In this document: positions 6,731 through 35,972 of the stretch, one piece after another
Layout: each line of letters opens with the position of its first letter
How positions within the stretch are numbered: the first letter of the stretch is position 1
From: Promethearchaeota archaeon
GTDB lineage: Archaea > Asgardarchaeota > Hermodarchaeia > Hermodarchaeales > Hermodarchaeaceae
NCBI GenBank assembly: GCA_048939625.1
Contig: JBHLPH010000002.1
Span: 87,559 to 151,558, forward strand
Direction: 5' to 3'
DNA length: 64,000 nt
Made by a program: the position numbers and the translations under genes
The notes under the pieces: model-generated
Told to the model about the DNA's origin: nothing
Database searches by the model: none
What the model saw: only the letters and a program-made list of their open reading frames with translations

Positions 6731-6774
6731 GACAGGCCTCCAGATGATCTCGATGTTTTTGTTTTATTTCTGGT

Positions 6775-7038: not shown

Positions 7039-7044
7039 CGACTC

Positions 7045-10649: not shown

Positions 10650-13600
10650 CTATTGCTTTTCGCCATCGATGACGAAGTCTTTCTTACCTTTAATCCGCTT
10701 CCCTTTGGGAGCATCGTCATCTCGTTTTTCTCGGAGGGTTTTAAGCACTTTTTGACGTTCGTCTTCTGTCAAATCCTTGATCTCTTCCATCAGTTTTTCT
10801 CGTTCTTCTTTGGTGAGGGAGGGGAGTTCAGCGGGACCAAGTGGTTCAGGTGCTTGTACGGTTTGGGGAGCGTGGGACATTGCCAGGGTCTCAAAGATTT
10901 CATTCCAGTCTTCCTTAGGCAATTTCCGCAGTTGTGCAGCGATTCGGGTTTTCTCAATATCACTGAGAGCAGGGAATAAGGCAAGCCGTGCTCGGAGGAG
11001 GGTTTCAAGGTCTTCGTCGAGTTCAGGTTCCTTGATCTTTCGGTCGAAGCGTGTGCCATCGGCCATTTGTTTCCTCAAGTCTTCAACGAACCAGACGCGC
11101 TCAGAGGGCGCGATTAGCTTCATTTGCTGAAAGAGTTCCAGTTTTTGCTCATATTCGATGAAGGGCAGTGCTTTGAGTTGGGCCCAGATGGCATCCTCTT
11201 CGGCTTCGCGTTCACTCCAATCGATTTCAGCAGGAATGACAACTGATGCGCCTCCTAACCCAACAGTTCGATAGGCCGTTTCTACAATTTCTTGCATGAT
11301 ATCGGGTCGACTAGAGATACGACCAATTTCGCCTTTGGAGAGTGACGGTGTTTGCCCTTTACTGATTGTACGAGCCATTTTCCGCATCTTTCGCACCACC
11401 CAAGGAATCGAGTAAACTCGTACATAAGCCAACCAAGTCACCAAGATTATAATGCCCAAAACAGCAATGATTGCCCCGATATTGATGACGTTTTGTACGA
11501 CTGGATTAGTCTCTGCAAAAAAGGTGATAGGTTCATCATTGATAGTAAATCGATCATCGACTTCAACATGGACTACGAACTCATGTCTTCCTGGTTGAGG
11601 GATACTAAAGAAGATTGAGTAGTTTCCATTATTGTGATTCTCAAATGGTAAGTTGAAAATACGTAGTGATTCACATGAGAGGGATACATTTGCATGTGTA
11701 ACCGGTAATTGGTGAAAGCTATCCGAAATATACAGGACTAACCGGAAGAGTGCCCCTGCCGTAACGCTCGTTACTCCTTCTAAAATTGTAATTTCTGTTT
11801 GGAATTTGGTGACAATTAATTCGAATGTGGAGGAACGTCTGGTCTCATAATTTTGTTTACTCATGGTAATCGTGAGTTGATAAGAAGCGGGAGTAACACC
11901 CGTCAGGTCAATCGAAGCAACATAGAAGCCGTCAATATACTCGAGTGGGCCTGTGCCGAAGCCCCAGTTATATACTCCGGTTGCGTTGGGGATACTCAAT
12001 CCGTTTTTGTCAGTGTAGTTAAAATATAACACCAGAGTATCACCCCATGGGATTTCCCAGGGTGTTGTGTTTAGGGTGCGAGTGGTGGTTTGGTAGTGGG
12101 CTTCAGCCTGCATTAAAACAAGATCGGTGCTTTGACGGCGAATATTCACTGTTACGATGGCAATACGGTATTCGTAGCTGGGGTGATCAGCGGTTAATGT
12201 GAGGGCATAGAAAGAGTCAGCAGGATAAAAAGTGCTTGAAAGCGTAATAGTATACCAGCCTAATGAACCATTAGGTAGAAGGGAGCCAGTTTGCTCAGCC
12301 CAATTAAAGGTAATATTAGCACTGGATATTGGTGAACCAGAGATATTATAGAAGTATGCATTCACGGTAAAGTCATCGCCCCAATCGACGTTAACTACGG
12401 GGGCTTCGGGATCAAGACTACATGGAATTAGAGATAGATGCACGGTGACTTGAATCCATTGAGTTTGCATGGTGGCTTTGCTTGCGCTGATGTAAAGCGT
12501 GTATGAGCCTACACCCATACCAGTTGAGCTAATGGTGGCGTTGTAGACGCCTTGAGTTTCGTCAATGAAAACACCATTGTGGGGGCCAAAACTGTATGTG
12601 ACCGTAGCGCCTTCAATGGGTTGACCATTTGTGGTGGTGAAGTTGACAAGGAAGGTAAAACTGGTATTAGCGATTGTAGTTACAGGGAACGGCGTTATTT
12701 GTTCTAGTTGAGTTGTGGTTTCTTGGATGATTAGTGCGATGGATGCTGATCCGATTCGATAGTTCGGGGGATTGGTGGCGATGATGGTGACAATCCAGCT
12801 CCCAGGTTCTGCGTCGGCAAGGAATGTAGCAGTCCATATTCCGTTCCCGAGGAAGGTCATAGTGACGTTGGGTCGACCAGCCCAAGCGTAGACTGCTGTT
12901 CCAGTATTTATGGGTCGTCCTAAATGATCAGTGACGTTGACCGTTAGGATTTGCATATCGTTATACCAAGTGATATTTTGTCCACTTAATGGACTGATAA
13001 TGTCGATGAGGATAGGGATTGGGTCAAGAGTTAGGAGAATCGTAATGGTTCTTTCCGCAAAATGAGGACTTAGATGGGAATCACTCAGAGTGATTTGGAC
13101 CGCGTGTTGACCTATTACTCGATTGGTAGTGTTTAAGACGAGGAGGTAGGTGCCGTTACCGTAATCATAGAAGGTGTAGAATCCGATATCCCAATCAGTT
13201 GTGGTTGTGGCATAGGGAATGTAGGTGCCTCCATGGTCTAAATCTTGATAGGTGAGGCGTATGGTGAGATTGTCTCCCCAAGGCCAAGAAGCGACATAGG
13301 AGGGAAGGGCGGAGAGGCTAGTTTGGATTTCTCGAATTACAAAACTTTGGATGTTGAATCCATTGGCGTAATGACTTTTGATTGCATATATTTGGATGGT
13401 ATAGCTACCTTCGATGCTATTGTCAGTGTAGATGGTTAGATAATAGGCATTATCAGTTGCATTATGGTAGACGTCCCAATAAGAAGCGTTCCAGTTACAT
13501 GAGATGCTCGCACTGGATATTTGGAGTTCATTTTCGGTATCATTGTAATGGATGATTATGGTAAGCGGTTCACCCCAGGGAATTGAAGTGGTGGTCTGTC

Positions 13601-16600
13601 CCATTACCTTAGCGTCGACGATGAAGAGAGTCGTTTGGATATCACGTACTTGAAATGTAACATCAATTTGGTCTGAATCATAGTGTGTTTTGGATAAAGT
13701 GAAGGACACAGTGAAACCTTGGGTGCCTGCGGTCACTTTGGAGGTATTTAGAATGAACGTGTATGTACCATCGCCATTATCACTGAGCCAATAATCTATT
13801 CCAGGTAGGTTATCCATCCAAGAAAAGGTTATCACAGCACCTGAGATGCCAATATACCCATTATCACTGTCATTATACTTGAGCGTGATGACAACAGCAG
13901 TTCCCCAAGGAACTGAAGGATTTTCTGTTGAAGCCCAAGTAGCTGTATGGATTGAACGTACAGTGAGTTCATAATATTTTGAGTTGATTACGTAATTACT
14001 CTCATTAAACAAGACGGTGACATAATAGATAGTTTCTGAGACATCTCCTTGGAAAGTAACAGTGTAGGTTCCATCACCATTGTTAGCAATCGAATACTTT
14101 CCGCTAATGTACCCAGAAACGGTTACCGTAGCCCCTGTGATCGGAACAGATGTTGAGACCACGTCAGTATAATTGAACATAACTGAAAGGTCACCACCAT
14201 ACGGAAATTGGGCAGTGGTTGGAGAGTATGAACTTGTAAGTTGGGTGGCGCGTGCATCAATATTAACTTGAATTCGAATTGTTTGGGCTGCATGATCCGT
14301 AAAAGTGGCAGTCACATAAAGGTCAATTACACCAACGGAAAAAGCGTGCGTATCAAACGTGTATAAATAATATCCACTTCCAAGGTCAGTCAAGGGATAT
14401 GATGAAGTATCGATGAGAATGTTGACAGTAGCAGATGCAATACCATGATGAGGTAAGGCGCTGATATTCTCATAATAGACATTGATATTGAAAGTTTCAT
14501 CCCAAAATACATGGACCTGATAACTATCGGTTACGTTGTTGTATTCAGTCCATCCATCTCCAGTCCCAGTGGGAGGGTAGGTGATTGAGGTTCGAACTGC
14601 ATCAAGATCGGTAGCCCAAGATACGACATTGATGATGATTGTGAAATTTTGTTGTTCAAATTCCCAAGAGGTTCCAATAATTCGCATGGTAACCTCATAT
14701 TTGACTCGATGAACGTCACCAAAAGAGGGATCTTCTTTATAGAAAACACGAGTTGTAGCGTTTTGGCTGAAGCTCCCCGAGGCTAGGGAACTTCCAAAAC
14801 CCGAGCCAGTGTCTTCATAATAGTCGTACTGAACCAAAACTGTTGGCCATAAAGAGGTCTTATTCAAGACATATGCTGATTGGAAGGGATCATAGAATTT
14901 AACCAAACTTGTGTAACCTTGGGATTTGGAAGTTTCAGCTGTAAATTCATCAGGGCCTGTTTGTTGGGTCGGTTTGATCATGGCATAGTTGATATTATTA
15001 ACGAGATTAATTGTGAAATCGACTTGGGATCCTTCATCAGAGCTTGCGTTAACGTATCCGTATCGGTATAGTTCGACAGAGAAAGTTGCTGTCATGCTTG
15101 GTTGCATAAGACTAGTGGAAAATTCAGTGGAGTAGCCTCCCAGCCCATCCGCTGTCATACCTACGGTTTGTAATTGCATATTCCGGTCATAATAGCGAAT
15201 TCTGGCACTGGCATCTCTGATGTATTCGCTCGTGTCGAGATTCTGCCATTTTACTTCGACTGTCACAGTGGAGCCAGAGATTACTCGTGTACCATCTGAT
15301 GGAGTCACTTTGGTAGCAGTGGTCTCGATGGCAACGGTTATGAACTTTTCTCGCATTCCACATTGACTTGACGAGTTATAGGATACAGTGATAAGCCAGC
15401 CACTTCCCGCTGCTGAAGCATTTATTGTTGGAATCAACCATATTTGACTAACCAAAGTGCCATTAGAATAAATGGTGGGATTGGTATCAGTTTGCCATAA
15501 CGAGCTGTTTGGAAAGAAAATAGAGACTTCACCATCATTATCAATTGGATCCCAAGCTTGTAGTTCCGCCACAACACGGATATAATCACCTTTCACGAAG
15601 TAATCGTCCGTTGATTGCGTGGTCCAGCCCCCAATCCCTGTGGCGCTAATTTGAGGAGATATGCTTTCAATATAGTTCGTGCTGGAGGCAAAAATCGAGA
15701 AATCCTCATTCGGCCCAGGAACATCCTCATCGATTTTAATGAATCGGCTTGAAGTGTTAAACTGATAATCGGAGATAGCGTCTCCTGTGTCATTTTCAAC
15801 AGAGCTCAGAGCCCAACCAGGTTTTAAAAATAATCCAAATGTGTAGCCTAAATGACCTGAAGGTGGAAGAGAACTGGGTGTAGTGTAACTAACCTCCCAT
15901 ATTGGACTCGCATTGACAGGTGCAGTGAAATGAGTTGATGCAGCATCAAGTTTCTCAGTTTTTACATACATTGAGTAATGATAATGGAAGTTCAGGTTAT
16001 ATGGGGAGTTGAATTGAAAGACTTGTGTTGTTGACCAGCAATTTGTAAGTAAAGCTTCATCTTTATTTGCTGGGTCAGCGTGAACTTCGACTTCGCCCTT
16101 ATTATTGCCAGTATTAACGAAAGCCGTATTGTTCAAGGTTAGAGCCACTTCAGTTGGACTCCGCTGGGTTAGAATTCGATAACGGAAGTTGTCGAAATAG
16201 ACATGACCAGTAAGCCAATTGGTTTTTCCCCCAGAATAAATAATGGAGATCCGAAGCTTGGCTGACCCGTTGATGGGTGCTGTACTAAAACTTAGATGGT
16301 CCCAATTTGTTGGCGCATAGATGTCAGTGGTTTCTGACCACCCTCCAATTTCAGTTGTATGATAGATGAGGGCTACTCTAATTTGTAGTTCTTTTTTATG
16401 AGTTATAGTAGGTGAGTATTTGATGTCAAATTCGAGGGTTGAGTTGTAAGGTTGTTTATCTGAAGAGTAGGTGAACGTGTTGTCAAAGCGGGCTTCGGCG
16501 GCATTATCTTCCCATCTATCATCAATATTTATATCTAGACAAGGGGCAGGATTGCCTTCGAAAATAGTTGTACCCCAGTGTTCAACAATACCACGAGTAT

Positions 16601-16961: not shown

Positions 16962-17340
16962 GCACCACACCTCATCGAAGATATCCCAATCGGTCAAAAA
17001 GCAAAGCTAGTTGCCGATCAATAATATATGTTGCAAGGAACTTTATGAGTATTTTCTGAATTATTCATCTAGACAACATAGCGGACATACTATGATTTTG
17101 TTTTGCAGAGATAGTTTGTTTACATTCTACCTAAGTCTTTATTCTTCAGTAAAATCAGCAGTTATTAAGCCTCAGTCTTAAGGGGGAAGAGATGTCTGAA
17201 CCAAATCAGATCCGAACTGCTGCGTTGCCAGATTAAGAACCGGATACAGGTAATACAATTTAACACCAAATTAGAAGTGGTCTTGGGGTTGTTTTTGCAA
17301 TTATTTTCAACACTTATCTTAATCGAATTATCCATCGAAT

Positions 17341-20300
17341 TTATTGTTCATCGTCTGGCTCGTCAACTTGAAATCTTTTTTTGCCTTTCACGACTTTCCC
17401 TTCTGCAGTGTCCTTAGTTTTCTTCTCCCGAAATGTTTGTAGAACCTTGTGGCGTTCTTCCTCAGTGAGATCCTTCAATTCTTCGAGTAATTTGTGGCGT
17501 TCTTCCTCAGTTATTGTTGGTAATTCATCTGGTCGGAGTATTTCATCATCTGAGACAACCTGGGGCTTCTCAGCGATGGCTAGAGTGCTAAAGATTTCAC
17601 TCCATTCTTCTTGGGGGACGTTGCGAAGTTGTTTGGCAATCCGTTCTTTTTCGTTAGAACTTAATTGAGGGAATTGTTTCAACCGGTCTTGTATTTCCTT
17701 TTCTAGTTCGGGAGACAAAGTGGGTTCTTTGGCTTTGCGGGCAAATCTGGTGCCGTCGGCCATTTGTTGTTTCAGGTCTTCGATGAACCACACACGTTCT
17801 GAGGCTGGTATTCGTTTCATTTCCTGAAATAATTCGAGTTTCTGATCGTGTTCGATATAGGGTAATTTCTTTAATTCAGCCCAGATGGCTTCATCTTCAG
17901 CATATCGTTCCTCGTAATCTAAGACAGCGGGAAGCACAGTGGAAGGAATTGGAATTTGAATGGTCTCGTATGCGGGTTCGATAATTTGGGTCATTAATTC
18001 AGGTCGAGCGCCTATACGACCTACATCACCCTTTGAGAGTTTAGGCGTTTTGCCTTTACCAATGGTGCGGCTCATTTTTCGCATTTTCCGGACCAGCCAA
18101 GGGATGGCAAGAACTCGCGTGTATGCGAGCCAAAAAATGATTATGAGTATCCCTATTACTGCGGCAATGAGGCCGATTTGAATTGAGGTTTGAACCATTT
18201 GACTTAGTGTGACCACAACAACGATGTTTTCTGTTGAAGAGCTATATTGTAAACCGCCAAGGGCGTTTATTTCAATGTGGAGTGTGTCAGCAAGGAAAAG
18301 AGGTAGAACTGTGAATGAATAATATCCATTTCCGCTGTCAACCATGTATTGTCTATCAATACCAAGTTCTGGAATGGTCACTGTGAGATTGCCCCCAATT
18401 ATTGGTAGATTGTGGTAAGTATCATTATAGTAGACTACTAAACTCCAAGATGTACCAGTGTCCACTGTTCCAGGATCTGTGATAACTTGGATTTCGGTGG
18501 GAACACGGATAACGAATAAATCATAGCGAGGACTTTGCCCAGTTGCGTAGTTTTGTAAGGTCAATGTGACTTGGATTGAATAGGAGCCAGGAGCAGCTAG
18601 CGTTAGATTTAGGGTAGCGACATAGAAGCCATTTTCATATACAAGGAGGCCTATGCCGTAATCCCAACTGTAGGATCCTGTTGCACCATCTATTGTTGTG
18701 TTGGTTGCGTCTGTGAAGTTGAAGTATAACGTGAGAATTTCACCCCGAGGAACAATCCAAGTAATTCCTGTCAAATTTGTTACAATATCTTGTGGTGCGA
18801 AATAGGTTTGAATTAGTACTAGGTCCAGGGTCGTCGGTTGTGCACGAATAAAAATCTCAGCAGAGGTAATAGCAAAGTCATATCCTTCGTGATCAACGGT
18901 AAGAGTTACTTGCCAGTGTCCTTCGGTGTAGATTGTAGAAGGTAATAATGTGATGTACCATCCAGATGTTCCATTTGGTTGAAGTATTCCAATCAGCGTG
19001 CCCCAGATATACGTGATGTTTGCTCCATCAATGGGTAAATCATGATGGGTGTCTTTGAAGAATACTTGAATTGTGAAATTTGATCCATAATATACCTCCT
19101 GGATGCTCGGAAAAGCTTGGAGTTCTGTTGGAATTAGCATTAGTGTCACGCTTATGGTCGTTGTTCGTTCGATGGCATTTGGCCCTCCGGCTGTGACATA
19201 GATGATATATTGGGCTTTTGTTAAACCAGCGCTAGTTAGCGTGGCATTATAGATATTGTTCCCAACAAATAGGAGGAATCCCGTTCGGTTAGATGCCCAA
19301 AGGTATGTTACAGTGGCATCCACAATGCCTGTGCCATAAATTGTTGTGAAGTTAAGTGATATTTCGAAGCTTTCGCCTACAACGACTTGGATACTTGAGG
19401 TTATTGGGCTAAGAATAGTGTCAGTGGGTAGGATATTAAGCATGATGAATCCGGTACCGATTTGGTAGCCAGTTTTGTTTGCTTGAATAGTTACGACATA
19501 GGCTCCTGTATCTGCGGCGGCTCCAAAAGAGACGTTGTATACTCCAGCTCCGACAAATACCATAGTTCCATTTCCTCCTAGCCAATGGTATGAGGTCATA
19601 GAGTCATTCATTAGTCGTCCATACAGGTCTGTGACACGCGCTGTGATTACTACCAATTCAGTCGAGTTATAAGTAGTCGTAACTGGTGAGGAGGAAATAA
19701 CTTCAACAAATAGCGGAATGGGTACTAAGGTGAGAGAGACTATTATGGTTCGTTGTGCAAAGTGGTCTCGCCAGAGTGTAATATTAACGGAATGGGTTCC
19801 AACGCCTCGACAAGTAGTGTTAAGAATTAAATCGTAGGTACCATTTCCATAGTAGATAATAGCATAATAGCTGGCATTCCAGTCGGTGGCAACTTCAGCA
19901 AAGGGTACTTGTCCTCCATGGTCTGTATCATTGTAGTCGATGCGGATTGTTATATTGAAGCTTAAAGGCCAATTCGGGATATAATCAGGATCCGCTTCAA
20001 GAGTTGTTTGGATTTTCCGTATAACAAAATTTTCAATTATTGAAAAGTCTTGGTAGTGAGCCTTGCTGGCACTTATCGTGACTGTATAACTTCCTTCTAA
20101 TCGGCTTGCTGTTTGGATAATAAGCACATAAGCCTGTAGGGTAGTGTTATAGTAATAGCTCCAATAAAATTCGTCCCAATCACAGTCAATGCTGGCTCCA
20201 GGAATTGGAGAACCACTATCATCTAGATTAGAGTATGTAAAAACAATGACTAGGTTATCACCCCAGGGAACGGTGGTTCCTGGATCAAGGGATTGCCGCT

Positions 20301-23661: not shown

Positions 23662-23798
23662 TTTAATACACCCTATTCTCAAATTGATGAATTTACTGTT
23701 GAATACCCCGCTAAATTAAGAACATACTTTTGAGGTTTTATCAGTTTTTCTTGAAATGTTTCTTTTACAAAATAATATCGTGGAATAAATATTAAGGG

Positions 23799-23823
23799 AT
23801 GAGAGTGCAAGTCGCACCCTCAT
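23799..23823 (-). terminator. Stem-loop just downstream of array member 3
   Basis: Minus strand ATGAGGGTGC-GACTT-GCACTCTCAT: 10-bp stem with one G-U pair, ~10 nt after the stop, followed by an AT-rich tract. Confidence 0.5.
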
Positions 23824-23832
23824 TAAGATATG

Positions 23833-26800
23833 TTAGTCATTTTTACGTGTGGTTTCTTCGAGGGCTTTGATGACTTCTTCTTGTTCTTCTTTGGAGAGTC
23901 CACGGAGCTGTTCGACGACCGCTGCTTTTTCTTCAGCTCCAAGGGCGTCAAGGGATTGGAGTCGGGCATGGATTAGGGGATCGACGCCTTCAGGTACGGG
24001 GGTCGGTTCTACTGAAACCCGTCCAAACCGGGTGCCGTCGGCCATTTGTTCTTTGAGGTCTTCGATGAACCAGACCCGGTCCTTGGCAGGGATGCGTTTC
24101 ATCTCTTCGAAGAGTTCGAGTTTCTGGTCGTGACCGAGGCCTTCGAGTTTTTCGAGTTCGGTCCAAATCATTTCGTCTTCGGCTTCCCGTTCTTCGATGG
24201 TTATGGCAGCGGGGAGCACGGTTACTCCAATGGGGAGACCGATGGCGCCATAGGAGGGTTCGATGATGGTTTCCATGGATTCAGGACGGGTGGCAATGCG
24301 GTTGATGTCGCGGTTGGAGAGATGGGTGCTCCCGCCTTTTCCGAGGGTTATGGACATCTTGCGCATCTTGCGGACAAGCCATGGAATAGCGAAGACTCGT
24401 GTGTAGGCGAGCCAGGCAATAAGGATGATGATGCCTAGGATGGCAATAACTAAGCCGAGGCGAAGACCTGTTTGGACGAGAGGATGAAGTGTGACTGTGA
24501 TACTCGTCTGGTGGGTTGCGATGGAATAAATAAGACCTGTTTCAGCGGTGAATTCCATTATATAGCTTTGTTCGATTGGAAAACTGACGGAGGGGAGTGT
24601 GTAAGTGCCATCTCCATTATCGGTCAGGATCCAACCAGTCTCATCGGTGATACCAGGGATTATGACGGTGATTGTTGAACCAGGGATAGTTATGTTGTGA
24701 TCGAGGTCCCAAAGTGTGAGGGTAAAGGTCATGGCAGTTCCTGTATAAGCGGACATGGCAGGAGGGAGGCCGCGAATTTCGGTTCGAACAAGGGTCACGG
24801 TGAGTGGGAGATTGAGTATCTGGGCGGTTTCGTAATTTTGTCGAGTCATTGTGACATCTAGGAGATAATTGGCGGGAGTGACTTGTGTCATATTCAGAAT
24901 CGCGTAGTATAAGCCGTCTTCGTAGATCAGGGGACCGCTACCTTGTTGCCAGTTGAAGGACCCAAGGGCATTGAGAATTGTCTGGTTGGCATAGTCGGTG
25001 AAATTGAAATAAAGATAGAGAACATCACTGCGGGGTACAGTCCAAGGTTCTGAAATGTTCAGCCATGTGATTGTGTCGGTGTCGGGGAAATACATCCATG
25101 CATTGACAAGTTCCAGTTGTGTGGGGCGGGCTTCGATATAGATTGTAGCTGAGCTTACCACGAATTCAAAGCTGGGTTCATTGGCAGCAAATGTGGCTGT
25201 GTATACTGCGCCAGCTGAAAAGGCAGTACTTGGAAGGGTGACTGTATACCAGCCGAGACTGCCATTGGGTTGAAGGGTTCCTGAAAAAGGTCCCCAGAAG
25301 TATTCAATGGATGCGCCCGTGACTGGGGTGTCATTGAATAGATTGCGGAAGTAGATGTTGATGGTGAAATTCAAACCCCAATAGACCACATAGGTGGTGG
25401 TTTCGGGTTCAAGGGCTGCTGGGAGTAAGGTTAGGACAAGGCTAATGGCACGGGATTGCGAATCCACGTTAGGTGAAGAAGCGGTAATATAAATTGTGTA
25501 AGACCCAGCTATGAGCCCAGTAGTGTCGATGGTGACGTTGTAGATACCGCCTCCAACTTCTGCATAGTTACCAGACAAAGTACCGACAGAATAGGTGACG
25601 ATTGCACCGAGTACAGGTCCTCCAAGTAGGGTGCTGTAATTGACTGGGAGACTGAAGCTAGATCCAATTGTAAAGTTTAGAGAATAGCGACCCGTGGGCA
25701 CAGTATCGAGGAAGCTGGGGATTTGTTGGACATTAACAACAATGGAGGCAAAGCTTTGGGCACAGTTGGTGCGGTTTACAAACGCAGTAATATAGTGTAC
25801 GCCGATGGTACCTGTGGAGGAAGCGAACCACGTACCATAATATCCTCCGGGTCCACTGGAGTTCATTGCAGATCCACCAACCCAGGAGAATGTGACTTCT
25901 GCATCTGAAATTGGGTCACCGAATATGGTCTCCACATAGATTTCAACCCAGAAGTTTTCGCCATAAACGATGTTTATGGGTTCTGAGACGGTGACCGTCA
26001 AATCGAGAGGCAGAGGATTAACATAAAATTGAACAATAATTTGTCGAGTATTATAGAAGGTTTTACTGACAGTGATAGTAACTGTGTGTAGCCCGACACC
26101 GACATTGTCTGTTCGAAGTGTGAGAAGATACATATCGGAGACAAAGTAAACATCGCCCCAGTCACAAGTGACTAAAGCACCGGGGATGCTGATGCCGCCG
26201 TGATCGGTGTCATTGTAGAAGAGAGGAATGGTGGTGTTTTGGCTCCAGTAGATATTGGTAGGATTGGTAAAGTCAAGGTCGGTGAGGATTTCGCGGACAG
26301 TCACTGTTAGATAGAATTGCTGGAACTGATAACGTTCCTTGTAGATGGTGATGTTAAGCGTGTAAGATCCGAGTGCTCCGGGTCCAGTTCCGTTAAGTTC
26401 TATTTCATACCATCCACTACCAGTTTCGGTGATGGTGTAATATCCGGCTGTCCAGTTTGCTGTGACTTCAATATAAGGAATACAGCCAGTGATTCCTACA
26501 CTGTCAGTTTTTCTCGTATATTGGAGTTGGACGGTTGCATTGTCTCCCCAGGGAACGTATACCCCAGCAGCTTGAGGTGAATAGATAACCGTTTCTGCCA
26601 CAATGTCGATTATAATATAACAAAAGGCATCATCATAGTGGCTTTTGCTTGCGTTGACACGAATCGTAAACTGGCCTACATCGCCTGGATCCAAGGCATT
26701 GATTTCGGCTTCCCAATACCCAGTTCCTGAGACATAATGGAAGGAGATTGTGCCGGTGGTCCAGTTACCCTCTACTAATGCCGGAGGTTCAAGCCAATCA

Positions 26801-28662
26801 TCACTATCAACATCTAAATATCGGACTTTGGGGAATAGAGGTTGATCTTCGAAATAAGCTTCAATGAGAGATTCACGTGGTGTTAGGCTAGTTGCATGGC
26901 GCACGGTATAAGAGAGGCTAAATTCACCTGCTTCTGTGGAGTTGTCCCATCTTACGAAGATTTGATAGGTTCCACCGGTTGTGTTCCATCCATCATTATA
27001 AATGCTTGAGGTGTAGACCCAGCCGGCTGCCGTGGGAGTGACCAATTCGGAGTACCAAAGCCCGCCGCCAGGTTGAAAGATAGTCACATTCGCTTGAGTG
27101 CTTGTGACTCCTGAAGGTGGATTATCTGTCCCATCGAGAATCCGTGCGGCAACTCGGGTTGTATTATCTACACGAATCGCTGAAGTTGGCGTCCAGCCGC
27201 CATCCCATATTTGGAGCTCAGCCGAATCAACATAATTATGCGATTCTGCTTGAATCATCCAGTAGCCATCGGGACTGTTGGTGATTGTGGTAGCCGGGAT
27301 AATCAGATAGCCATCACCTAGATCACCACCCGAGCATTGCCCAACTTTGTTAGTAGTGGGGAGTTGGGGTTCGGATACAAATGTGATATCCCAGTCAACG
27401 GGAATGGTGAAGTTGAAAACATCATTCCAGTATTGCGAAGGCAAGGCAAGCTGGTAGTAGAAGGTCCAGGTTGTATTCTGTCCACTCATTGCGGTAAAGC
27501 CAACGCCGACTGCAGAGGGATTCTGTGCATACACTGTTGTGGAAGTCTTATTGGCAAAAAGGTTCAAGTCACAAAGGGCCGTGACTTCGATGTCTAAGTC
27601 AGGATCTGGCGGATTCGGAGTGGGTGCCCAGACAAGGTTGGAAATCACAGGACTGGAAGTCCAGACTGTGGTGGGATATTGTCGGACAAAACCAGTCCCA
27701 CGGCTGCCTTGATCCTCAACATCGAGACCATTCATCTGGAGGTTAAGTTCAGAGGGGTACACTTTGGTCTCCATGTATAGCCAAACATTATCAAAGTCAA
27801 CACGCATCCAATTGTTGGAGCTGTAACCCACACTCATGGTGGAAAACATGCCGATTTCAAGTTCTACCGCGCTATTCGGGAGATCAAATAACCCGGTATC
27901 AAGAGAAAGGAAACCAGTATTGTGCCAGTTTGTATCGCCTACAGATTGAAAGCCTTTCGCCCATACCTGTGAGCCGTTGATGCGGACATAGACGTTGAAG
28001 AGGGCGTTGCTTCCCCAGGCGCTATCGACTCGATAATCCATCTTTACAGCGACCCAAGCTAGATCTGATCGGTTAACAGTGAAAGTTTGGGTCCACCAAG
28101 TTCGATCGTTGTTATCATAACGGTAATAGGATCCATCCCATCGTCCATTCTCTTGTACTCGAACAAAGCCGTTGCCATCAATTCCGCCACTTTCCCACGT
28201 CTGAGAGAACGTATTTGCACCGCCTAGATCACTATAGCCACTTGTCCAAGAGGTGGCAGCACCGTTAAAGCTGGGGTTTAGGACCCATGTTCGATTTTCA
28301 TACAAATCGTAAATGGAATAATCAAGCCGATACCCTGTCCATCCCGGTGGAAGGACTACATCTGCAGAATCCGTACCTGGAGTCTGAGTTACACTATCAT
28401 AAAGCAAATACACGCTTTGAGAGCCATCGGTCCGATTCGCGACTTCAAGAACCGATCGGGCATTACCAACACCAGCATAATCAGGATTTGGAACAGGTGG
28501 TGTGCCTCCCGGAAGTGGAGCTTGGGAACTAGCAGTTGGAAAGGGAATGTTTGCCGGAGAAGGCAGGATAGCTTCGGGTGCGCCTAAAGCAGAAACTGGC
28601 TGGGCCAGTAATGGAAGGGCAATACAAAATAAAGCTAGAAGAATAAGATACCGGGATTTCAT
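23833..28662 (-). CDS. Giant type I membrane surface protein, array member 3 (1609 aa): CBM-like head, ~8 Ig-like repeats, TM helix, tail with 2 helical modules
   Basis: AGGTGA SD; signal peptide MKSRYLILLALFCIALPLLAQPVSA; NPSFN...VDFDNV head; same tail motifs as members 1 and 2. Confidence 0.88.
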   Translation of the reverse strand: MKSRYLILLALFCIALPLLAQPVSALGAPEAILPSPANIPFPTASSQAPLPGGTPPVPNPDYAGVGNARSVLEVANRTDGSQSVYLLYDSVTQTPGTDSADVVLPPGWTGYRLDYSIYDLYENRTWVLNPSFNGAATSWTSGYSDLGGANTFSQTWESGGIDGNGFVRVQENGRWDGSYYRYDNNDRTWWTQTFTVNRSDLAWVAVKMDYRVDSAWGSNALFNVYVRINGSQVWAKGFQSVGDTNWHNTGFLSLDTGLFDLPNSAVELEIGMFSTMSVGYSSNNWMRVDFDNVWLYMETKVYPSELNLQMNGLDVEDQGSRGTGFVRQYPTTVWTSSPVISNLVWAPTPNPPDPDLDIEVTALCDLNLFANKTSTTVYAQNPSAVGVGFTAMSGQNTTWTFYYQLALPSQYWNDVFNFTIPVDWDITFVSEPQLPTTNKVGQCSGGDLGDGYLIIPATTITNSPDGYWMIQAESHNYVDSAELQIWDGGWTPTSAIRVDNTTRVAARILDGTDNPPSGVTSTQANVTIFQPGGGLWYSELVTPTAAGWVYTSSIYNDGWNTTGGTYQIFVRWDNSTEAGEFSLSYTVRHATSLTPRESLIEAYFEDQPLFPKVRYLDVDSDDWLEPPALVEGNWTTGTISFHYVSGTGYWEAEINALDPGDVGQFTIRVNASKSHYDDAFCYIIIDIVAETVIYSPQAAGVYVPWGDNATVQLQYTRKTDSVGITGCIPYIEVTANWTAGYYTITETGSGWYEIELNGTGPGALGSYTLNITIYKERYQFQQFYLTVTVREILTDLDFTNPTNIYWSQNTTIPLFYNDTDHGGISIPGALVTCDWGDVYFVSDMYLLTLRTDNVGVGLHTVTITVSKTFYNTRQIIVQFYVNPLPLDLTVTVSEPINIVYGENFWVEIYVETIFGDPISDAEVTFSWVGGSAMNSSGPGGYYGTWFASSTGTIGVHYITAFVNRTNCAQSFASIVVNVQQIPSFLDTVPTGRYSLNFTIGSSFSLPVNYSTLLGGPVLGAIVTYSVGTLSGNYAEVGGGIYNVTIDTTGLIAGSYTIYITASSPNVDSQSRAISLVLTLLPAALEPETTTYVVYWGLNFTINIYFRNLFNDTPVTGASIEYFWGPFSGTLQPNGSLGWYTVTLPSTAFSAGAVYTATFAANEPSFEFVVSSATIYIEARPTQLELVNAWMYFPDTDTITWLNISEPWTVPRSDVLYLYFNFTDYANQTILNALGSFNWQQGSGPLIYEDGLYYAILNMTQVTPANYLLDVTMTRQNYETAQILNLPLTVTLVRTEIRGLPPAMSAYTGTAMTFTLTLWDLDHNITIPGSTITVIIPGITDETGWILTDNGDGTYTLPSVSFPIEQSYIMEFTAETGLIYSIATHQTSITVTLHPLVQTGLRLGLVIAILGIIILIAWLAYTRVFAIPWLVRKMRKMSITLGKGGSTHLSNRDINRIATRPESMETIIEPSYGAIGLPIGVTVLPAAITIEEREAEDEMIWTELEKLEGLGHDQKLELFEEMKRIPAKDRVWFIEDLKEQMADGTRFGRVSVEPTPVPEGVDPLIHARLQSLDALGAEEKAAVVEQLRGLSKEEQEEVIKALEETTRKND

Positions 28663-29155
28663 TTATGTGCTCACCTTTTCTCGCAGTTTTGCGGTCTCTG
28701 AGCTGGTGTAGCCACTTAGCTAGACACACGTAGGGAATTTAAATAGATTTCCTGAAATCTTCTCTTGAAGAAACTGGCTTAAGGATAAGGTCAAGGGACG
28801 TGAGACGCTTTAAACAACAGCGCGATTCAATCCAGAAGAAGGAAGAGAGCTACTCTTCCTCTTCACTGGGAGTCTCGTATTGATCTTTGAGGGTTTCAAA
28901 GACTTCTTCGCGATCTTCGGGGGGTAGACTGCTAATTTGTTTAAAGAGGGTTTTCTTCTCGCGTTCACTGAGCGTGGGAATCGCATCCAGGCGAGCCTGG
29001 ATGATTTGTTCCTCTGCGGTCTTATCGAGGAGCCCTTCTGGTGGGAGGGCTGGAGCACGTTTAAAACGGGTGCCGTCAGCCATCTGGTGCTTCAGGTCTT
29101 CGAGGAACCAGATGCGGTCCTTGGCAGGGATGCGTTTCATCTCTTCGAAGAGTTC
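24077..29155. repeat. 41-bp exact repeat shared by the tails of array members 3 and 4
   Basis: cggtccttggcagggatgcgtttcatctcttcgaagagttc at 24077-24117 and 29115-29155. Confidence 0.9.
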
Positions 29156-32100
29156 CAGTTTCTGGTCTCGACCGAGACCTTCGAGTTGATCGAGTTCATG
29201 CCAGATATCAACTTCTTCGGCTTCTCGTTCATCAACTGAGAGCGCGATTGGAACGGCGCTTGTAACAAAGGCAATGTTGACGTTGCCATAGGCGTCTTCC
29301 ATTATATCGCCCATTTGGTCAAGGCGATCGGATATCCGTCGCTGATCCCGACCGGAAAGTTTTGTCATCTTTCCTTTACCAAGAGTAGTTGACATTTTTC
29401 GCATTTTGCGAACCAGCCAAGGAATCGCGAACACGCGCGTATATGCAACCCATGCAATGAGAATGATGATACCAATCAAAGCCGCTATGAGCCCCCAAGT
29501 GATGATATTTCGGGAGAATTCGGGGACTTGGACGATAAGTTGGAGCTGGAATGTCGCTGGTGCGTAGTTCGTCTTTGAAGCCACGATATTGAGCTCCCAA
29601 ACTCCTTCGAAGAGTACACTGAGCCCAATTGCTTCATAGACACCAGGTTCGACTTCTTGCATGAGAATGGGGCCAAGAGTCACCCCGGGAATATCAAGAG
29701 TCAAAACTGCTCCCGATATGTATGTAAAGTGGGCGAGGTCAGTGAAATTAACCCGGATTCGAAAGAGGTCTCCAACATTAAGCTCATGAAAGTCAGTGTC
29801 AAGAATTGGATTAAGCAGAAATAAATCTGTAGGGATTAGAGTTACCTCGATTGTAAAACTAAGAATTGATATTTCATAATTTTGCCCTGAGAATCCCGCA
29901 GCTGCAGAGTAGGAACCTATAGGTACTGTGCTGGAATTGATGATAACGCGGTAGAGACCATTGCCGATATATTCAATGGATTGGAAGCCTACTTGGTAAC
30001 TGATTTGTGCTGTTGCATTGTGAATAAGTTGGTTCCACATTCCTGAGTAATTGAATGTGAGAATTAACAGGTCATTTATAGGCACCTGTAAGGTGCTGAA
30101 GTCAGTGATGCTATTGTTGCTGAGCCCTGCTTGATCTGCAGTGTATGCGTCGATGAGGGCAGCAGTAGTTGGTTGAGGAGCGACGTATAACAAAACTTGT
30201 GCAGTGGCATCTTCATATGCTGCAATTTGCGCGCGTATCGTAATGGTGTATGTGCCTACCGTGATTGCTTCAACTCGGAATGTGGTGGCGTACCAGCCAT
30301 CGGTTCCGTTGGGCTGAAGAATTCCGGAAAACCCAATGCCAAAGAACTGCGGTGCCGCCCCTGTAATTGGTTGATTGGTTGCCGTATCATTAAGATACAC
30401 AGTAAGGGTAATTGAGTCGTTCCAAAACACACCATACGATTGGTATTCTGGGATAATCTGGACTTCGCGACCTCGAATAACAATACTAATTGAGAGGAAA
30501 GCTTGCCAGTAGTCCACGGGGGCGTTGACATCGAGTAGAATCCGGAGCTGGTATGTCTCATTGACCAAATAGCCTGCAGCATTGAAGGTAACAGAATAAT
30601 TACCGGGTTCACCGCCAATAGGATTGAGAGTTCCTGAATCAACATTGCTGTGAGTAGAGTTGGATAAAGTCCAGTTCGCGACATAGGGAATCGATGTTAA
30701 AGTTGCATCAATCGGAGCTCCGGCGACAAGGTCCCAGTACTGGACGACGAATTGGGTTGTGGTGTTGTAGCCCACTTCGATGTAGGGGATAGTGCTGGGG
30801 CGGACCAGTTGGAGTTCAGTGGGATGTTCCGTAGCCACAACCCCGATCGGCACATTAGTGCTGGTGGTATCGCTGACAGAAATAGGGGTGGTTTGGTTAT
30901 GGACGCGGAATTGATTGATGTAGCGGATATTGACATCATAAAGACCAGGAAGCAGATACGTGGAAGCTGTCCCTGTTGGTAGTGTTGCATTTAAGGCAAA
31001 CACTGGCTTGCCGGTTGTGGCATTATCAAGGAATATTTCTGCAAATGTAACTAGGTTGTTGTTAGTATACCAATCCACGACGTGAACGGTTGTGTCGCTG
31101 AGCTGGCAGTGTATAGTTTGTTGCCATCCACGTTGGGTAGTATGATTTAATGTAATCTGGGTGGTGTTAACGAGAAAGGTGACTGAACCTCCATAAGTCG
31201 AAAGTAGGGTATAGTTAGAGATAATCGTGTAGAGTCCATCTTCTAATTTGAGGAATGTCACATTAGCGTTTACAGTGGGACCGCTTTGCACGAGGTCCAT
31301 GGAGCTGTTGTAGATGTAGACGTTAATATTGGATATATTAGAGCCTTCGACGTCTTTAGTCGTGCAGTTTAAGATGTTGTGCCGGAATAGTTCCTGTTCT
31401 CCCAATTCAATGGTTATTGGATTATTAATTTGAAAGGTAAGTGATCGCACATCGGTATAATTTGTGCCATATGCACTGGTAAAGACGGTATAATCATAGG
31501 TGAAGGTCTCACCAGTAGGCATAATGAAGAGGTCGCCTTGATGACCTTCACGGAGAATCTGTTCGAGCATGGTGTTATCGCCCATATTAAGCACAGCAAG
31601 TGACAGAACTTCCCAGCCCACAGGATTAACCTTGGCAATGAGACCAAGAGTAGGGTGCTGGGTTCCATCGTAACCGGCTTCTCCCGAGTCATCATACCAA
31701 ACCATCCAAGGTTCAATTGGGAAGTCTCGACGGCGCCCATCAACCGATTCATTATATAATCCATATTTTGAGCCGATCCAAGCCTTGCGGTTTTGAACGG
31801 CATCAATTGTGCCTGGGGTACCAGACCCACAAGTGAAGGTCATAATATGCGGCCAGTCACCATAATTTTTCACATGACATTGTGTGTTTTGCCATTGTGG
31901 ATTCGCTGTTATTTCAAGAATCACATTTACTAGGGCACTATCACCATGCCAATAGAAGGTATATGTAATTGTATAATTCAGGAAGCCAGCTGCGCCATTA
32001 TTTCCACGATTAACAGTGTCAGATGTCTGATTACACCATGGCGAATTTTGATTACAGTAACCACCATCACTAGTAATAATTTTGATTCTTGTGAAAAGAG

Positions 32101-33094
32101 AGCCGTCTTCAATAATCCAAACTCCTGCTCCTGCAATCCAAGCCTCTGCAGGATTATCAGGAGCAACATTTGCTCGATTGAAAATAGTTGATCCCGATCC
32201 AGTTGTTGAATCGACGCCCTCAGGATCTAATGCGAATTCACCTAATAACATGTATTGTAGATTTGTTCCAGATCCCGTTCCGTTATTCGTGTCAAGAGCA
32301 TCGGTATCACCGTAGCGTACAGCAATTAGACCACAACAGGGTCCGCCCCAGTCAGAGCCTCCACGGAGCATGTCAGTGAGGAGAATGGCAGCGTGTTCGC
32401 TTGAAGTTGCAGCGGAGCGGATGTAGACTATGTCAACATTAGTGTAGTTTGTTGAGGTCACGTCCGAGTAGACCCATGGCATGGTCGAATCGTCATTGAT
32501 AGGACCGTTGGCGGGTATAGCAGTAATCTGGTCTATATATGTGGGGGCAACGGAATAATCATCATCATAGTAGATGTAAAAGACTTCTTGATGATTCAGC
32601 GTGATGTTGACCAGAAAACAGATAGTGAGTGAGTCATAGAAGGTCGTAGGGCCTGTTGTGTGAGTGGTGGTATTCCACACTTGGGAGGGTACTTCGTGCC
32701 AAGTCATGAGATCCCAGTAGGCGACGGCGATGATGTTTTCACGGGCAACATCACCTGAAAAGGTGAGGTAAACATGAACTGGTTCCATTGTTCTGGATGC
32801 GATATCCGGTTCGATGATGGTGATTTCGCGACGATAATCGTAATTAGTATCCCACCACTCGACGAGTGTTTCTCGACCTGTTCCTTGTGGATTGTCGGGA
32901 ACGGGAGGTGCCCCAGCTTCTGAAGGAATTACGATGAGGTTGTTCTGAGGTTGAAAAGAACTAGCAATAGTGGTTGTTTCGAGTTCTGGATTTCCCTCCG
33001 CGGTAAGGGGTGTGGCGGGTATCATGGCGGGGACTGTAAATTCGAGTAAGAAGAAGATTAGAAAGAGCCCTAGGGCTAGATGTGTTTTTCGCAT
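28850..33094 (-). CDS. Giant type I membrane surface protein, array member 4 (1414 aa): DUF2341-like N-terminus, distinct head, ~4 Ig-like repeats, TM helix, tail with 2 helical modules
   Basis: AGGAG SD; signal peptide; WWDTNYDYRREITI...EVPSQV...YIYYD pattern typical of DUF2341-type domains; LQPNGTDGWY repeat and tail shared with the other three. Confidence 0.85.
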   Translation of the reverse strand: MRKTHLALGLFLIFFLLEFTVPAMIPATPLTAEGNPELETTTIASSFQPQNNLIVIPSEAGAPPVPDNPQGTGRETLVEWWDTNYDYRREITIIEPDIASRTMEPVHVYLTFSGDVARENIIAVAYWDLMTWHEVPSQVWNTTTHTTGPTTFYDSLTICFLVNITLNHQEVFYIYYDDDYSVAPTYIDQITAIPANGPINDDSTMPWVYSDVTSTNYTNVDIVYIRSAATSSEHAAILLTDMLRGGSDWGGPCCGLIAVRYGDTDALDTNNGTGSGTNLQYMLLGEFALDPEGVDSTTGSGSTIFNRANVAPDNPAEAWIAGAGVWIIEDGSLFTRIKIITSDGGYCNQNSPWCNQTSDTVNRGNNGAAGFLNYTITYTFYWHGDSALVNVILEITANPQWQNTQCHVKNYGDWPHIMTFTCGSGTPGTIDAVQNRKAWIGSKYGLYNESVDGRRRDFPIEPWMVWYDDSGEAGYDGTQHPTLGLIAKVNPVGWEVLSLAVLNMGDNTMLEQILREGHQGDLFIMPTGETFTYDYTVFTSAYGTNYTDVRSLTFQINNPITIELGEQELFRHNILNCTTKDVEGSNISNINVYIYNSSMDLVQSGPTVNANVTFLKLEDGLYTIISNYTLLSTYGGSVTFLVNTTQITLNHTTQRGWQQTIHCQLSDTTVHVVDWYTNNNLVTFAEIFLDNATTGKPVFALNATLPTGTASTYLLPGLYDVNIRYINQFRVHNQTTPISVSDTTSTNVPIGVVATEHPTELQLVRPSTIPYIEVGYNTTTQFVVQYWDLVAGAPIDATLTSIPYVANWTLSNSTHSNVDSGTLNPIGGEPGNYSVTFNAAGYLVNETYQLRILLDVNAPVDYWQAFLSISIVIRGREVQIIPEYQSYGVFWNDSITLTVYLNDTATNQPITGAAPQFFGIGFSGILQPNGTDGWYATTFRVEAITVGTYTITIRAQIAAYEDATAQVLLYVAPQPTTAALIDAYTADQAGLSNNSITDFSTLQVPINDLLILTFNYSGMWNQLIHNATAQISYQVGFQSIEYIGNGLYRVIINSSTVPIGSYSAAAGFSGQNYEISILSFTIEVTLIPTDLFLLNPILDTDFHELNVGDLFRIRVNFTDLAHFTYISGAVLTLDIPGVTLGPILMQEVEPGVYEAIGLSVLFEGVWELNIVASKTNYAPATFQLQLIVQVPEFSRNIITWGLIAALIGIIILIAWVAYTRVFAIPWLVRKMRKMSTTLGKGKMTKLSGRDQRRISDRLDQMGDIMEDAYGNVNIAFVTSAVPIALSVDEREAEEVDIWHELDQLEGLGRDQKLELFEEMKRIPAKDRIWFLEDLKHQMADGTRFKRAPALPPEGLLDKTAEEQIIQARLDAIPTLSEREKKTLFKQISSLPPEDREEVFETLKDQYETPSEEEE

Positions 33095-35072: not shown

Positions 35073-35972
35073 GTGATACGATTCGTGGATTTGCATACCC
35101 ATACAACCGCCTCAGATGGGACTGAGTCGCCAACACAAGTGGTTAGTAAAGCGCATGCCTTGGGATTGGTAGGAGTGGCTATCACCGATCATGATACGAT
35201 TCAAGGTGTGGATGAAGGCATACGTGCGGGCATCAATATGGGGATAGAAGTGATTCCCGGAGTCGAAATTAGCTGCAACTGGCTAGAGCACCAACTCCAT
35301 CTCCTGGGATTCTACATTAACACCCAAGATTCAGAATTGCAGGCTCTGCTGGACTGGATGCGTGTTGGACGAGAACAACGCCTATCGAAAATGATTGCAA
35401 AGCTTAGAACCTTAGGCATTGTGGTTGACCCCCAGGAGGTGGAAGCCGAGGCGAAAGGCGAATCCACTGGACGCCCCCATTTAGCCCGTGTCCTCATGCG
35501 TCATAATCATGTTGCCACGCTTGAAGAAGCCTTTGACAAATATCTGGGGTATGGTCGTCCAGCTTACGTGGATCGTCCACGACCGACAATTAAACAGGGA
35601 ATTCAAACTATCTTGCATGCGAAGGGCGTGCCAATAATTGCCCATCCCCTGACGGTTGATGCTGATTTAGGAGTGATGCTTGCAGAACTCAAACCGCTTC
35701 ACATCCAGGGAGTTGAGTATTATTATCCATATAAGCAGGTTGCAGGTAAATCAGACCACTGGTATGCGACCATAGAACCCCGGCAAACCGAGCTAATGAA
35801 ACTCGCAAAAGGTTATGAACTGATTATTACAGGAGGCTCTGATTACCACGGGGCGATTCCAGAGAAAGCCGATTTGGGATCCGTTGCAGTTCCCGTGGAA
35901 ACGCTTGAGATGCTTCGGCGTCGGTATAAGGAGCTTTTCGGAAGCCTTCCGTTCGCCAAAGGCCCTGCTTAA
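35073..35972 (+). CDS. PHP-domain phosphoesterase (TrpH/YciV-like)
   Basis: DLHTHTTASDG, AITDHD, GVEIS, HLLG, GRPHLA, AHP, GGSDYHG. Confidence 0.92.
   Translation: MIRFVDLHTHTTASDGTESPTQVVSKAHALGLVGVAITDHDTIQGVDEGIRAGINMGIEVIPGVEISCNWLEHQLHLLGFYINTQDSELQALLDWMRVGREQRLSKMIAKLRTLGIVVDPQEVEAEAKGESTGRPHLARVLMRHNHVATLEEAFDKYLGYGRPAYVDRPRPTIKQGIQTILHAKGVPIIAHPLTVDADLGVMLAELKPLHIQGVEYYYPYKQVAGKSDHWYATIEPRQTELMKLAKGYELIITGGSDYHGAIPEKADLGSVAVPVETLEMLRRRYKELFGSLPFAKGPA

Follow-up and report, generated by a model that had tools for sequence, protein, structure and literature searches.

A predicted cytoplasmic cassette shared by giant stalked surface proteins in a four-gene array of an Asgard archaeon

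Introduction

Surface proteins of prokaryotes normally end at the membrane. In this work we describe a family that appears to continue beyond it, encoded by a tandem array of four genes in a stretch of 64,000 nucleotides (hereafter, the window) from an uncultured Thor-type Asgard archaeon (Promethearchaeota archaeon, GenBank assembly GCA_048939625.1, contig JBHLPH010000002.1, positions 87,559 to 151,558 of the forward strand). The closest described systems are the surface-layer (S-layer) and other surface glycoproteins of archaea, such as SlaB of the Sulfolobales, tetrabrachion of Staphylothermus and the haloarchaeal PGF-CTERM proteins, which have the same Sec signal, beta-sandwich ectodomain rich in N-glycosylation, C-terminal anchor and wall-less envelope (PMC8559796). 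Those glycoproteins end a few basic residues past the transmembrane (TM) helix or are processed by an archaeosortase, whereas the four proteins of the window, here called members 1 to 4, are predicted to extend into a folded cytoplasmic cassette of 182–252 amino acids (aa). A further difference is that one cassette is found on many unrelated ectodomains, with several paralogues per genome.

A second group of comparable proteins is that of the bacterial fibrillar adhesins of the invasin/intimin/Big type, in which there is also a distal head on an immunoglobulin-like (Ig-like) rod, a repeat of the Invasin_D3 type, a variable stalk and a divergence that grows towards the tip. The bacterial adhesins, however, are anchored by an outer-membrane beta-barrel, by LPXTG/sortase or by the retention module of the type I secretion system, and the window proteins have no LPXTG motif and no outer-membrane beta-barrel or LysM domain of Pfam. 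We know of no bacterial fibrillar adhesin of this type in which a lone TM helix leads to a conserved domain in the cytoplasm.

The adhesion receptors of eukaryotes (cadherins, Ig-type cell adhesion molecules, integrin beta and the protocadherin clusters) follow a similar logic, with a variable ectodomain made of repeats, one TM helix, a basic juxtamembrane segment, a constant tail and tandem paralogues. The constant region of the protocadherin type is encoded by shared exons, whereas the window tails are encoded separately in each gene. No cadherin, integrin, FN3 or I-set family of Pfam was found in the window proteins at E up to 0.1, and neither an NPxY motif nor a catenin-binding domain turned up in their tails by motif search and Pfam. 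The likeness to cadherins and integrins holds for design only, with no kinship of sequence or fold. On a smaller scale, the units of the tail are alike in modelled fold, size and beads-on-linkers layout to three-helix interaction modules, such as the B domain of staphylococcal Protein A, GA/FIVAR and the XD of paramyxovirus P. This likeness is generic, with Z of at most 6.2 and a TM-score of 0.6 across 51 residues, and comes with no sequence similarity; moreover, the bacterial modules of Protein A, GA and FIVAR are extracellular, whereas those of the window tails would be cytoplasmic.

We think that members 1 to 4 are membrane-anchored, stalked surface glycoproteins whose cytoplasmic cassette serves as a shared handle for docking or anchoring, a reading towards which we lean, if only slightly. 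In any case, the tail is a cassette not described before and predicted to be cytoplasmic, and the type of protein that bears it is known.

A constant tail made of repeated modules

The array consists of four adjacent, co-oriented open reading frames (ORFs) on the minus strand, at 10650-16997, 17341-23682, 23833-28662 and 28850-33094. In members 1 and 2, the ORF as given opens with a TTG codon that lies upstream of the likely start, the ATG at 16961 and at 23661, respectively, and the ATG-started products have the same lengths as two entries of public protein collections (P0053 and P0030, respectively). All four products share one overall plan, formed by a signal peptide, a beta-rich head, 5–10 Ig-like repeats, one TM helix and the tail. 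A preliminary description of this DNA had proposed four co-oriented neighbouring genes of common architecture, and the ORFs, hydropathy and alignments bear this out. The family is larger than the array, since the same genome (an assembly of 2.3 Mb, 88% complete) encodes a fifth paralogue in a 2694-aa ORF on another contig (tail locus C58:38208-38942, L028). The tail of this fifth paralogue is 43% identical to that of member 3.

The four tails align almost without gaps over about 165 columns, after which members 1 and 2 carry about 70 aa more. Their mean column identity is 61% and 75 columns are invariant, many of them charged or polar. The near-gapless alignment and the invariant RKMRKM, QKLELF and QMADGTRF motifs, which had been pointed out in the preliminary description, are present in all four. 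The tail opens with a juxtamembrane helix (..IPWLVRKMRKM..) that is basic and amphipathic, with a hydrophobic moment (muH) of 0.44–0.82. Profile comparison with hhalign shows that the units that follow are copies of one module of about 45 aa, predicted to form three helices: module 1 matches module 2 with a probability of 97% and an E of 3e-11, and module 2 matches the third copy present in members 1 and 2 with an E of 8e-12.

Among relatives, the module is present in 1 to 5 or more copies, and the linkers between copies range from a few residues up to about 200 Pro/Glu-rich residues. A 647-aa fragment from a Joint Genome Institute (JGI) metagenome, P0175, has at least five tandem copies after the TM helix, so the number of modules is highly variable; one of its copies has a precomputed match to the RecX three-helix domain of Pfam (PF21982). 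In a sister subfamily (L019 in G018:C29; L017, L018 and L025), the cassette lies on ORFs of 3500–7129 aa and the linker between modules 1 and 2 spans about 50–200 Pro/Glu-rich residues, with PPPK runs and a conserved A-P-T-V-L-P-P-E-L-Q. Poly-proline readers could bind to linkers of this sort.

Membrane anchoring and topology

The N-terminus of each protein has a basic n-region followed by a hydrophobic h-region, as in signal peptides of the Sec type. The hydrophobic segment reaches a Kyte-Doolittle window value above 1.8 in members 1, 3 and 4; that of member 2 is a shorter stretch of about 15 aa, judged by eye. Exactly one further strong hydrophobic helix is found in each protein, 180–250 residues before the C-terminus, with Kyte-Doolittle values of 2.6–2.8. 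The net charge is -3 to 0 in the 15 residues that precede this helix and +6 to +9 over the initial 35 of the tail, and the remainder of the tail is strongly acidic (-11 to -19). The ectodomains hold 31–57 N-X-S/T sequons each, that is, 2.3–3.2 per 100 aa or about twice the shuffled expectation, and 6–9 cysteines; in the tails, 874 residues in total, there is not one sequon or cysteine, and charged residues (K+R+D+E) make up 34–39%. The pattern of charge, the distribution of sequons and the composition thus point to a type-I topology, with the ectodomain outside and the tail in the cytoplasm, as had been presumed in the preliminary description. The ectodomains are probably N-glycosylated, the stalk heavily so, judging from their sequon density.

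A C-terminal segment of this kind, common to many surface proteins and with basic residues next to a TM helix, brings to mind the archaeosortase-type sorting signals (PGF-, PEF- or VPXXXP-CTERM), which are removed by cleavage and give way to a lipid anchor. Member 4 even has a P-E-F directly before the TM helix (29519-29527). The known signals, however, end a few basic residues past the helix (PMC8559796), whereas here 182–252 conserved residues follow, which are predicted to be folded; members 1–3 have no PGF, PEF or VPXXXP within the 40 residues before the helix, and NCBIfam gave no match whatever for these proteins. The P-E-F of member 4 is probably a chance occurrence, because of this lack of an NCBIfam match and because 189 residues come after it. 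An archaeosortase-type signal is therefore excluded on its defining features (position of the motif, long tail and NCBIfam), and we give it a practically negligible probability.

Conservation and selection

Between paralogues, identity rises from 25–37% in the last 200 residues of the stalk to 47–56% in the TM helix, 53–77% in the 30 juxtamembrane residues and 46–67% in the core of the tail. The same trend is observed between orthologues: for P0003 (member 3) and P0006, which is longer by about 600 residues, the values are 93–95% for the tail, 58% for the proximal stalk and 11–34% farther out, so that identity climbs steadily from head to tail. The tail is thus more conserved than the adjoining Ig-like stalk, both between paralogues and in this orthologous pair. 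At the nucleotide level the paralogous tails are 57–66% identical, with a proportion of synonymous differences (pS) of 0.66–0.77, which means that synonymous sites are saturated, and a ratio of nonsynonymous to synonymous change (dN/dS) of 0.08–0.19. The tails are under old purifying selection. Concerted evolution was considered as another origin of their similarity and rejected because of the low nucleotide identity and the saturated synonymous sites. There is a single exception: a run of 41 nucleotides (nt) that encodes ELFEEMKRIPAKD in module 1 is identical in members 3 and 4 (24077-24117 and 29115-29155, minus strand), the tails of which are 66% identical in DNA outside it; this may be a small gene-conversion tract or reflect a constraint at the RNA level.

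These data bear on whether the tail is anything more than a passive anchor, in which the basic helix grips acidic lipids and the acidic modules act as a stopper against pull-out from a wall-less membrane, with no specific partner involved. The basic and amphipathic character of the juxtamembrane helix, the strongly dipolar charge of the tail and the near-exclusive presence of the cassette on very large ectodomains suit such a device, and so does the outcome of the searches in the window genome and the loci examined, which revealed neither a candidate gene for a partner nor any further protein with the module. A stopper would nevertheless need fewer than 75 invariant positions maintained while synonymous sites became saturated, and it would have no use for invariant polar residues or for the conserved non-helical motif after module 1; nor does it account for a module that remains recognisable across distant Asgard lineages. 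We therefore think that a purely passive anchor is unlikely, although it deserves serious attention. The invariant charged and polar positions, together with that motif, suggest a surface in use, beyond what upkeep of the fold would demand.

Distribution across Asgard archaea

A profile of the tail gave 197 matches at E <=0.001 among 1.84 billion representative proteins. They are nearly always located at the extreme C-terminus of large proteins, of up to 5543 aa; the short ones are mostly fragments from short contigs, and a few resemble complete small proteins. Two weak matches, P0286 and P0301, are alanine/glutamine-rich repeat proteins and probably not homologues. All the named relatives are called 'hypothetical protein' and come from Asgard assemblies, most of them labelled Thorarchaeota (SMTZ1-83 and AB_25 bins included) and the others Promethearchaeota or Hermod-, Hod-, Sif- and Odinarchaeota.

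The cassette is present in all 18 of the other genomes of the window's family that were searched, with 1–10 copies in each and on ORFs of up to 7129 aa. The phylum was surveyed on species-representative genomes. When only genomes at least 90% complete are counted, strong matches occur in 40 of 40 genomes of a neighbouring family (f6, the named relatives of which are Thorarchaeota) and in the single genome of a third one. The largest family (f9) gave weaker matches, with E from 1e-6 to 1e-13, in 68 of its 89 genomes, and several small families gave them as well; the other families searched gave none (for example, 0/7, 0/11 and 0/5 genomes). On inspection, the weak matches share the same plan: a TM helix, a proline and then a basic helix, a K-G-K-like turn and at least one E-L-x-x-I-P-x-L-S-x-x-E module. 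Judged by this plan, we regard them as real remote homologues in other Asgard lineages; one of them ends an 1805-aa protein (P0402) labelled Promethearchaeia.

The family can be defined by a large secreted protein that has at its very C-terminus a cassette formed by a TM helix, a basic helix with x-P-[WFK]-x-[VL]-R and one or more modules of the form E-L-x-x-[IL]-P-x-L-[SGT]-x-x-E. This Asgard 'constant tail' includes the window proteins, which together with the fifth paralogue match the profile at E from 1e-63 to 1e-122. P41 and R45 are invariant in an alignment of 22 diverse members (A2).

Predicted fold and domain searches

The AlphaFold2 (AF2) model of the member 3 tail, built from a 22-sequence alignment, is all-helical, with a mean predicted local distance difference test (pLDDT) score of 82. 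The TM helix is followed, past a break at the invariant proline, by the juxtamembrane helix, two further helices and a three-helix unit, after which a poorly ordered linker leads to a second three-helix unit. No helix is modelled for the conserved motif that follows module 1. A co-fold of two copies of the tail with alignment A2, run without controls, scored 0.00, a value that carries no weight either for self-association or against it.

The absence of a described domain in the tail, assumed in the preliminary description, was confirmed by searches in several resources. For the tail, Pfam returned only sub-threshold helical rows, both in the four proteins and in 22 diverse tails, and BET, HAAS, YqbF_HeH, RecX_HTH1, FliG_C and DUF3106 were discarded as its identity, since they fall below the cut-offs and reflect generic helical or compositional similarity. 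A profile search against all sequences of the PDB gave nothing below E 0.5. Foldseek with the tail model found no PDB entry at E <=0.001, the top rows being engineered Protein A three-helix repeats, and a VIA-wide Foldseek search gave generic three-helix bundles at most. Exhaustive structural alignment of the modules reached Z of 5–6.2 to the Protein A B domain, the paramyxovirus P XD and Embp, and whole-tail comparison with the ESM Atlas gave TM-scores <=0.31. Our literature searches found no paper that describes the tail.

No kinase, cyclase, helix-turn-helix (HTH) or other output domain was detected in the tail above threshold in the Pfam, NCBIfam and PDB profile searches, in agreement with the earlier statement on this point, and classical signalling is therefore unlikely. 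One way to signal with such a tail would be regulated proteolysis, by the logic of Notch or of anti-sigma factors, in which a ligand or shear causes shedding, intramembrane cleavage follows and the freed tail acts in the cytoplasm. The Gly- and Ala-rich TM helix is like those of intramembrane-protease substrates, and some members show likeness to HAAS, RskA_N, RecX_HTH1 and the YqbF HeH in Pfam, but all these rows lie under the cut-offs, the tail is net acidic with no recognisable DNA-binding or enzymatic domain, and no protease or regulator gene is linked at the loci examined. In our opinion, this mode of action is very improbable.

Heads and stalks

In BLAST, the identity of members 1 and 2 is 45% along the whole protein. 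Member 3 has the stalk in common with them, in a shorter version, and a head that is distantly and weakly related to theirs. What member 4 has in common with them is limited to the membrane-proximal repeats and the tail; its BLAST similarity to the others begins at about residue 750–870, and its head has none to their heads. The heads of members 1–3 are homologous to one another and to that of the fifth paralogue, and an alignment of 15 such sequences has 37 invariant columns.

The only family recognised by Pfam in the four proteins is Invasin_D3, an Ig-like domain, in member 1, with a score of 39.1 bits where the cut-off is 33; PF09134 is a precomputed match in many relatives. A strand motif, G-x-Y-x-[ATV]-x-[ILF], recurs each 85–120 residues in all four stalks, and BLAST between paralogues gives off-register (off-diagonal) stalk matches. 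Self-BLAST of the stalks gave no off-diagonal matches, and repeats were counted by the spacing of the motif instead: about 9–10 in members 1 and 2, 7–8 in member 3 and 5 in member 4. The Invasin_D3 match and the recurrent motif support the Ig-like nature that had been attributed to the stalks, and both their differing lengths and the unrelated head of member 4, also noted earlier, hold in these comparisons.

The heads resisted assignment. Pfam recognised no family in 15 heads of members 1, 2, 3 and 5; searches of PDB sequences gave no match for the head of member 4 and only chance-level lipocalin rows (E 0.04) for that of member 3. Language-model neighbours were unnamed bacterial clusters for the head of member 4, with PcRGLX lyase domains at low rank only, and Big_1 proteins for that of member 3, at scores of 0.82–0.83, under the 0.9 threshold for a lead. 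In addition, all four proteins, member 4 included, have a Pro-rich motif ending in G-x-G after the signal peptide (at about residues 45–75), as in P-N-S-P-Y-E-G-x-G of members 1 and 2 and P-D-N-P-x-G-T-G of member 4. It could be a motif for processing, glycosylation or docking.

Gene neighbourhood and history of the locus

The coordinates of the features are collected in Table 1. The array is flanked by metabolic genes, which encode Acd-type CoA ligases, a nitroreductase, an enoyl-CoA hydratase, a xylose-isomerase-like TIM barrel and a PHP protein. Relatives in the genus keep the gene order, with the 1414-type first, then the 1515-2325-type, the 2105-type and sometimes a fourth, and have the same enoyl-CoA hydratase gene upstream of the array. 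In family f6 there is a tandem pair of nearly constant length (about 2590 aa) between an Acd-type CoA ligase and a PHP gene, the PHP side of which also has genes for UbiA (a prenyltransferase), LPG_synthase_TM and DUF362 (L043-L046; G374:C1, G391:C12). The corresponding Acd and PHP flanks of the window array are at 5333-8427 and 35073-35972. As both families have these flanks, the locus looks old and positionally conserved. The synteny between the window's family and f6 is partial and old, and the linked genes are partly lipid-related.

Old paralogues in a fixed order favour stable envelope components over a fast-changing repertoire of receptors. The former fit the data at least as well, though heads and stalk lengths vary between orthologues. 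An extension of this idea is lateral assembly, in which the TM helices and tails of the four to five paralogues would bind one another to form a hetero-oligomeric, S-layer-like coat organised from the membrane and the inner side of it, the genes encoding subunits of one structure instead of alternative receptors. The antiquity of the paralogues and their fixed order across the genus would be expected of such subunits, as would the f6 pair of nearly constant length at a partly syntenic locus; the conserved G..A..G face of the TM helix and the complementary charges of the basic juxtamembrane segment and the acidic modules could provide the contacts. Great variation in head and stalk length, seen even among orthologues (1515–2325 aa for member 3), would however be unusual for the subunit of a lattice, and we consider lateral assembly quite improbable.

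Regarding expression, the spacer between members 1 and 2 (16998-17340) has 343 nt and the other two have 150 and 187 nt; all are AT-rich, so that each gene may have its own promoter. The orthologue of the fifth paralogue (L031 contig) lies upstream of genes for large multi-PAS proteins and a dual-specificity phosphatase.

Table 1. Positions in the window of the four surface proteins and of their membrane-spanning and C-terminal parts.
Feature	Coordinates	Strand	Basis or remarks
Member 1, giant type-I surface protein, 2103 aa	10650..16961	-	ORF (continues to TTG 16997), database length, Invasin_D3
Member 2, giant type-I surface protein, 2106 aa	17341..23661	-	ORF, ATG 23661, database length
Member 3, type-I surface protein, 1609 aa	23833..28662	-	ORF, BLAST, head alignment
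Member 4, type-I surface protein, 1414 aa, ~5 Ig-like repeats	28850..33094	-	ORF, BLAST, motif spacing
Predicted TM helix, member 1	11406..11504 (approximate)	-	Kyte-Doolittle 2.6; conserved G..A..G, WLAY.RV
Predicted TM helix, member 2	18100..18198 (approximate)	-	Hydropathy, alignment
Predicted TM helix, member 3	24382..24483 (approximate)	-	Hydropathy, alignment; AF2 helix 8-38, pLDDT 95-98
Predicted TM helix, member 4	29420..29518 (approximate)	-	Hydropathy, alignment
Predicted cytoplasmic tail, member 1, 251 aa, three modules	10650..11405	-	RKMRKM at 11376-11393
Predicted cytoplasmic tail, member 2, 252 aa, three modules	17341..18099	-	RKMRKM at 18073-18090
Predicted cytoplasmic tail, member 3, 182 aa, two modules	23833..24381	-	RKMRKM at 24355-24372
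Predicted cytoplasmic tail, member 4, 189 aa, two modules	28850..29419	-	RKMRKM at 29393-29410
Module 1, member 3, QKLELF inside, QMADGTRF at end	24037..24198	-	AF2 helices 103-118, 125-137, 140-156
Module 2, member 3, second three-helix copy	23839..23979	-	AF2 helices 176-184, 190-200, 205-222, pLDDT ~90

A possible role for the cassette

In the reading that we prefer, that of a shared docking or anchoring handle, the signal peptide would export the protein and the beta-rich head would be displayed on the stalk of 5–10 Ig-like repeats. Its only TM helix, conserved and bearing small residues along one face, would hold the protein in the membrane; past the proline kink, the basic amphipathic juxtamembrane helix would lie on the acidic inner leaflet, and two or three acidic three-helix modules of about 45 aa, separated by short or Pro/Glu-rich linkers, would end the cassette inside the cell. 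By way of protein contacts made by the modules and by the conserved loop that follows module 1, varied ectodomains might be tied to one intracellular partner or to one another.

Several observations weigh against the handle. The module was found in the window genome in the five tail proteins only, with no soluble or other carrier, and the genes beside the arrays (the window, two orthologous contigs, the orthologue of the fifth paralogue and two f6 genomes) include no partner candidate, only metabolic or lipid-related neighbours. The AF2 model of the tail has a predicted TM-score (pTM) of 0.32, which leaves the mutual arrangement of its parts undefined, and the three-helix fold is generic, with Z well under the level of kinship for helical models. 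The model of the member 4 head, made with 11 orthologues, has a pLDDT of 30; as the heads match no family, adhesion or ligand binding by them is putative. Finally, the cytoplasmic placement of the tail is a prediction from the sequence rules of charge, sequons and composition.

For these reasons, the proposal of the preliminary description survives in part. The architecture and the shared tail stand, and none of the three outcomes that it had named as refuting (a described domain or sorting signal in the tail, an extracellular tail, and a tail no more conserved than the neighbouring Ig repeats) was observed. The coupling of different ligands to one intracellular partner, in the fashion of cadherins and integrins, is conjecture, as no partner was found. 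A stronger form of the docking handle, which we regard as a doubtful possibility, is that the tail is an Asgard-born docking site between surface and interior, whose three-helix modules and conserved loop recruit a component of the cytoskeleton or of membrane trafficking, for instance actin regulators, the endosomal sorting complexes required for transport (ESCRT) or a coat- or adaptor-like protein. In that case, the cell could place and cluster its giant adhesive glycoproteins, or link to them mechanically, from within.

Outlook

To our knowledge, the molecular identity of the surface proteins of cultured Asgard archaea is largely unknown. Cultured Lokiarchaeia lack an ordered S-layer and have a single membrane with complex surface proteins (PMC9834061); in P. 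syntrophicum, putative S-layer proteins went undetected (PMC11284389). From these observations, the identity and anchoring of Asgard surface proteins are still a question, for which we think that the tail family offers an entry point. A conserved cytoplasmic cassette, predicted to be folded, on many giant ectodomains is unusual among prokaryotic surface proteins, and even its plainest reading defines a new domain family. The cassette provides a simple sequence marker to catalogue the surface proteome of these uncultured organisms and, as a soluble bait of about 190 aa, a means of probing any connection between surface and cytoplasm in Asgard archaea. If the tail were indeed a docking site between surface and interior, these proteins would be a prokaryotic equivalent of those adhesion receptors whose tails bind adaptors.

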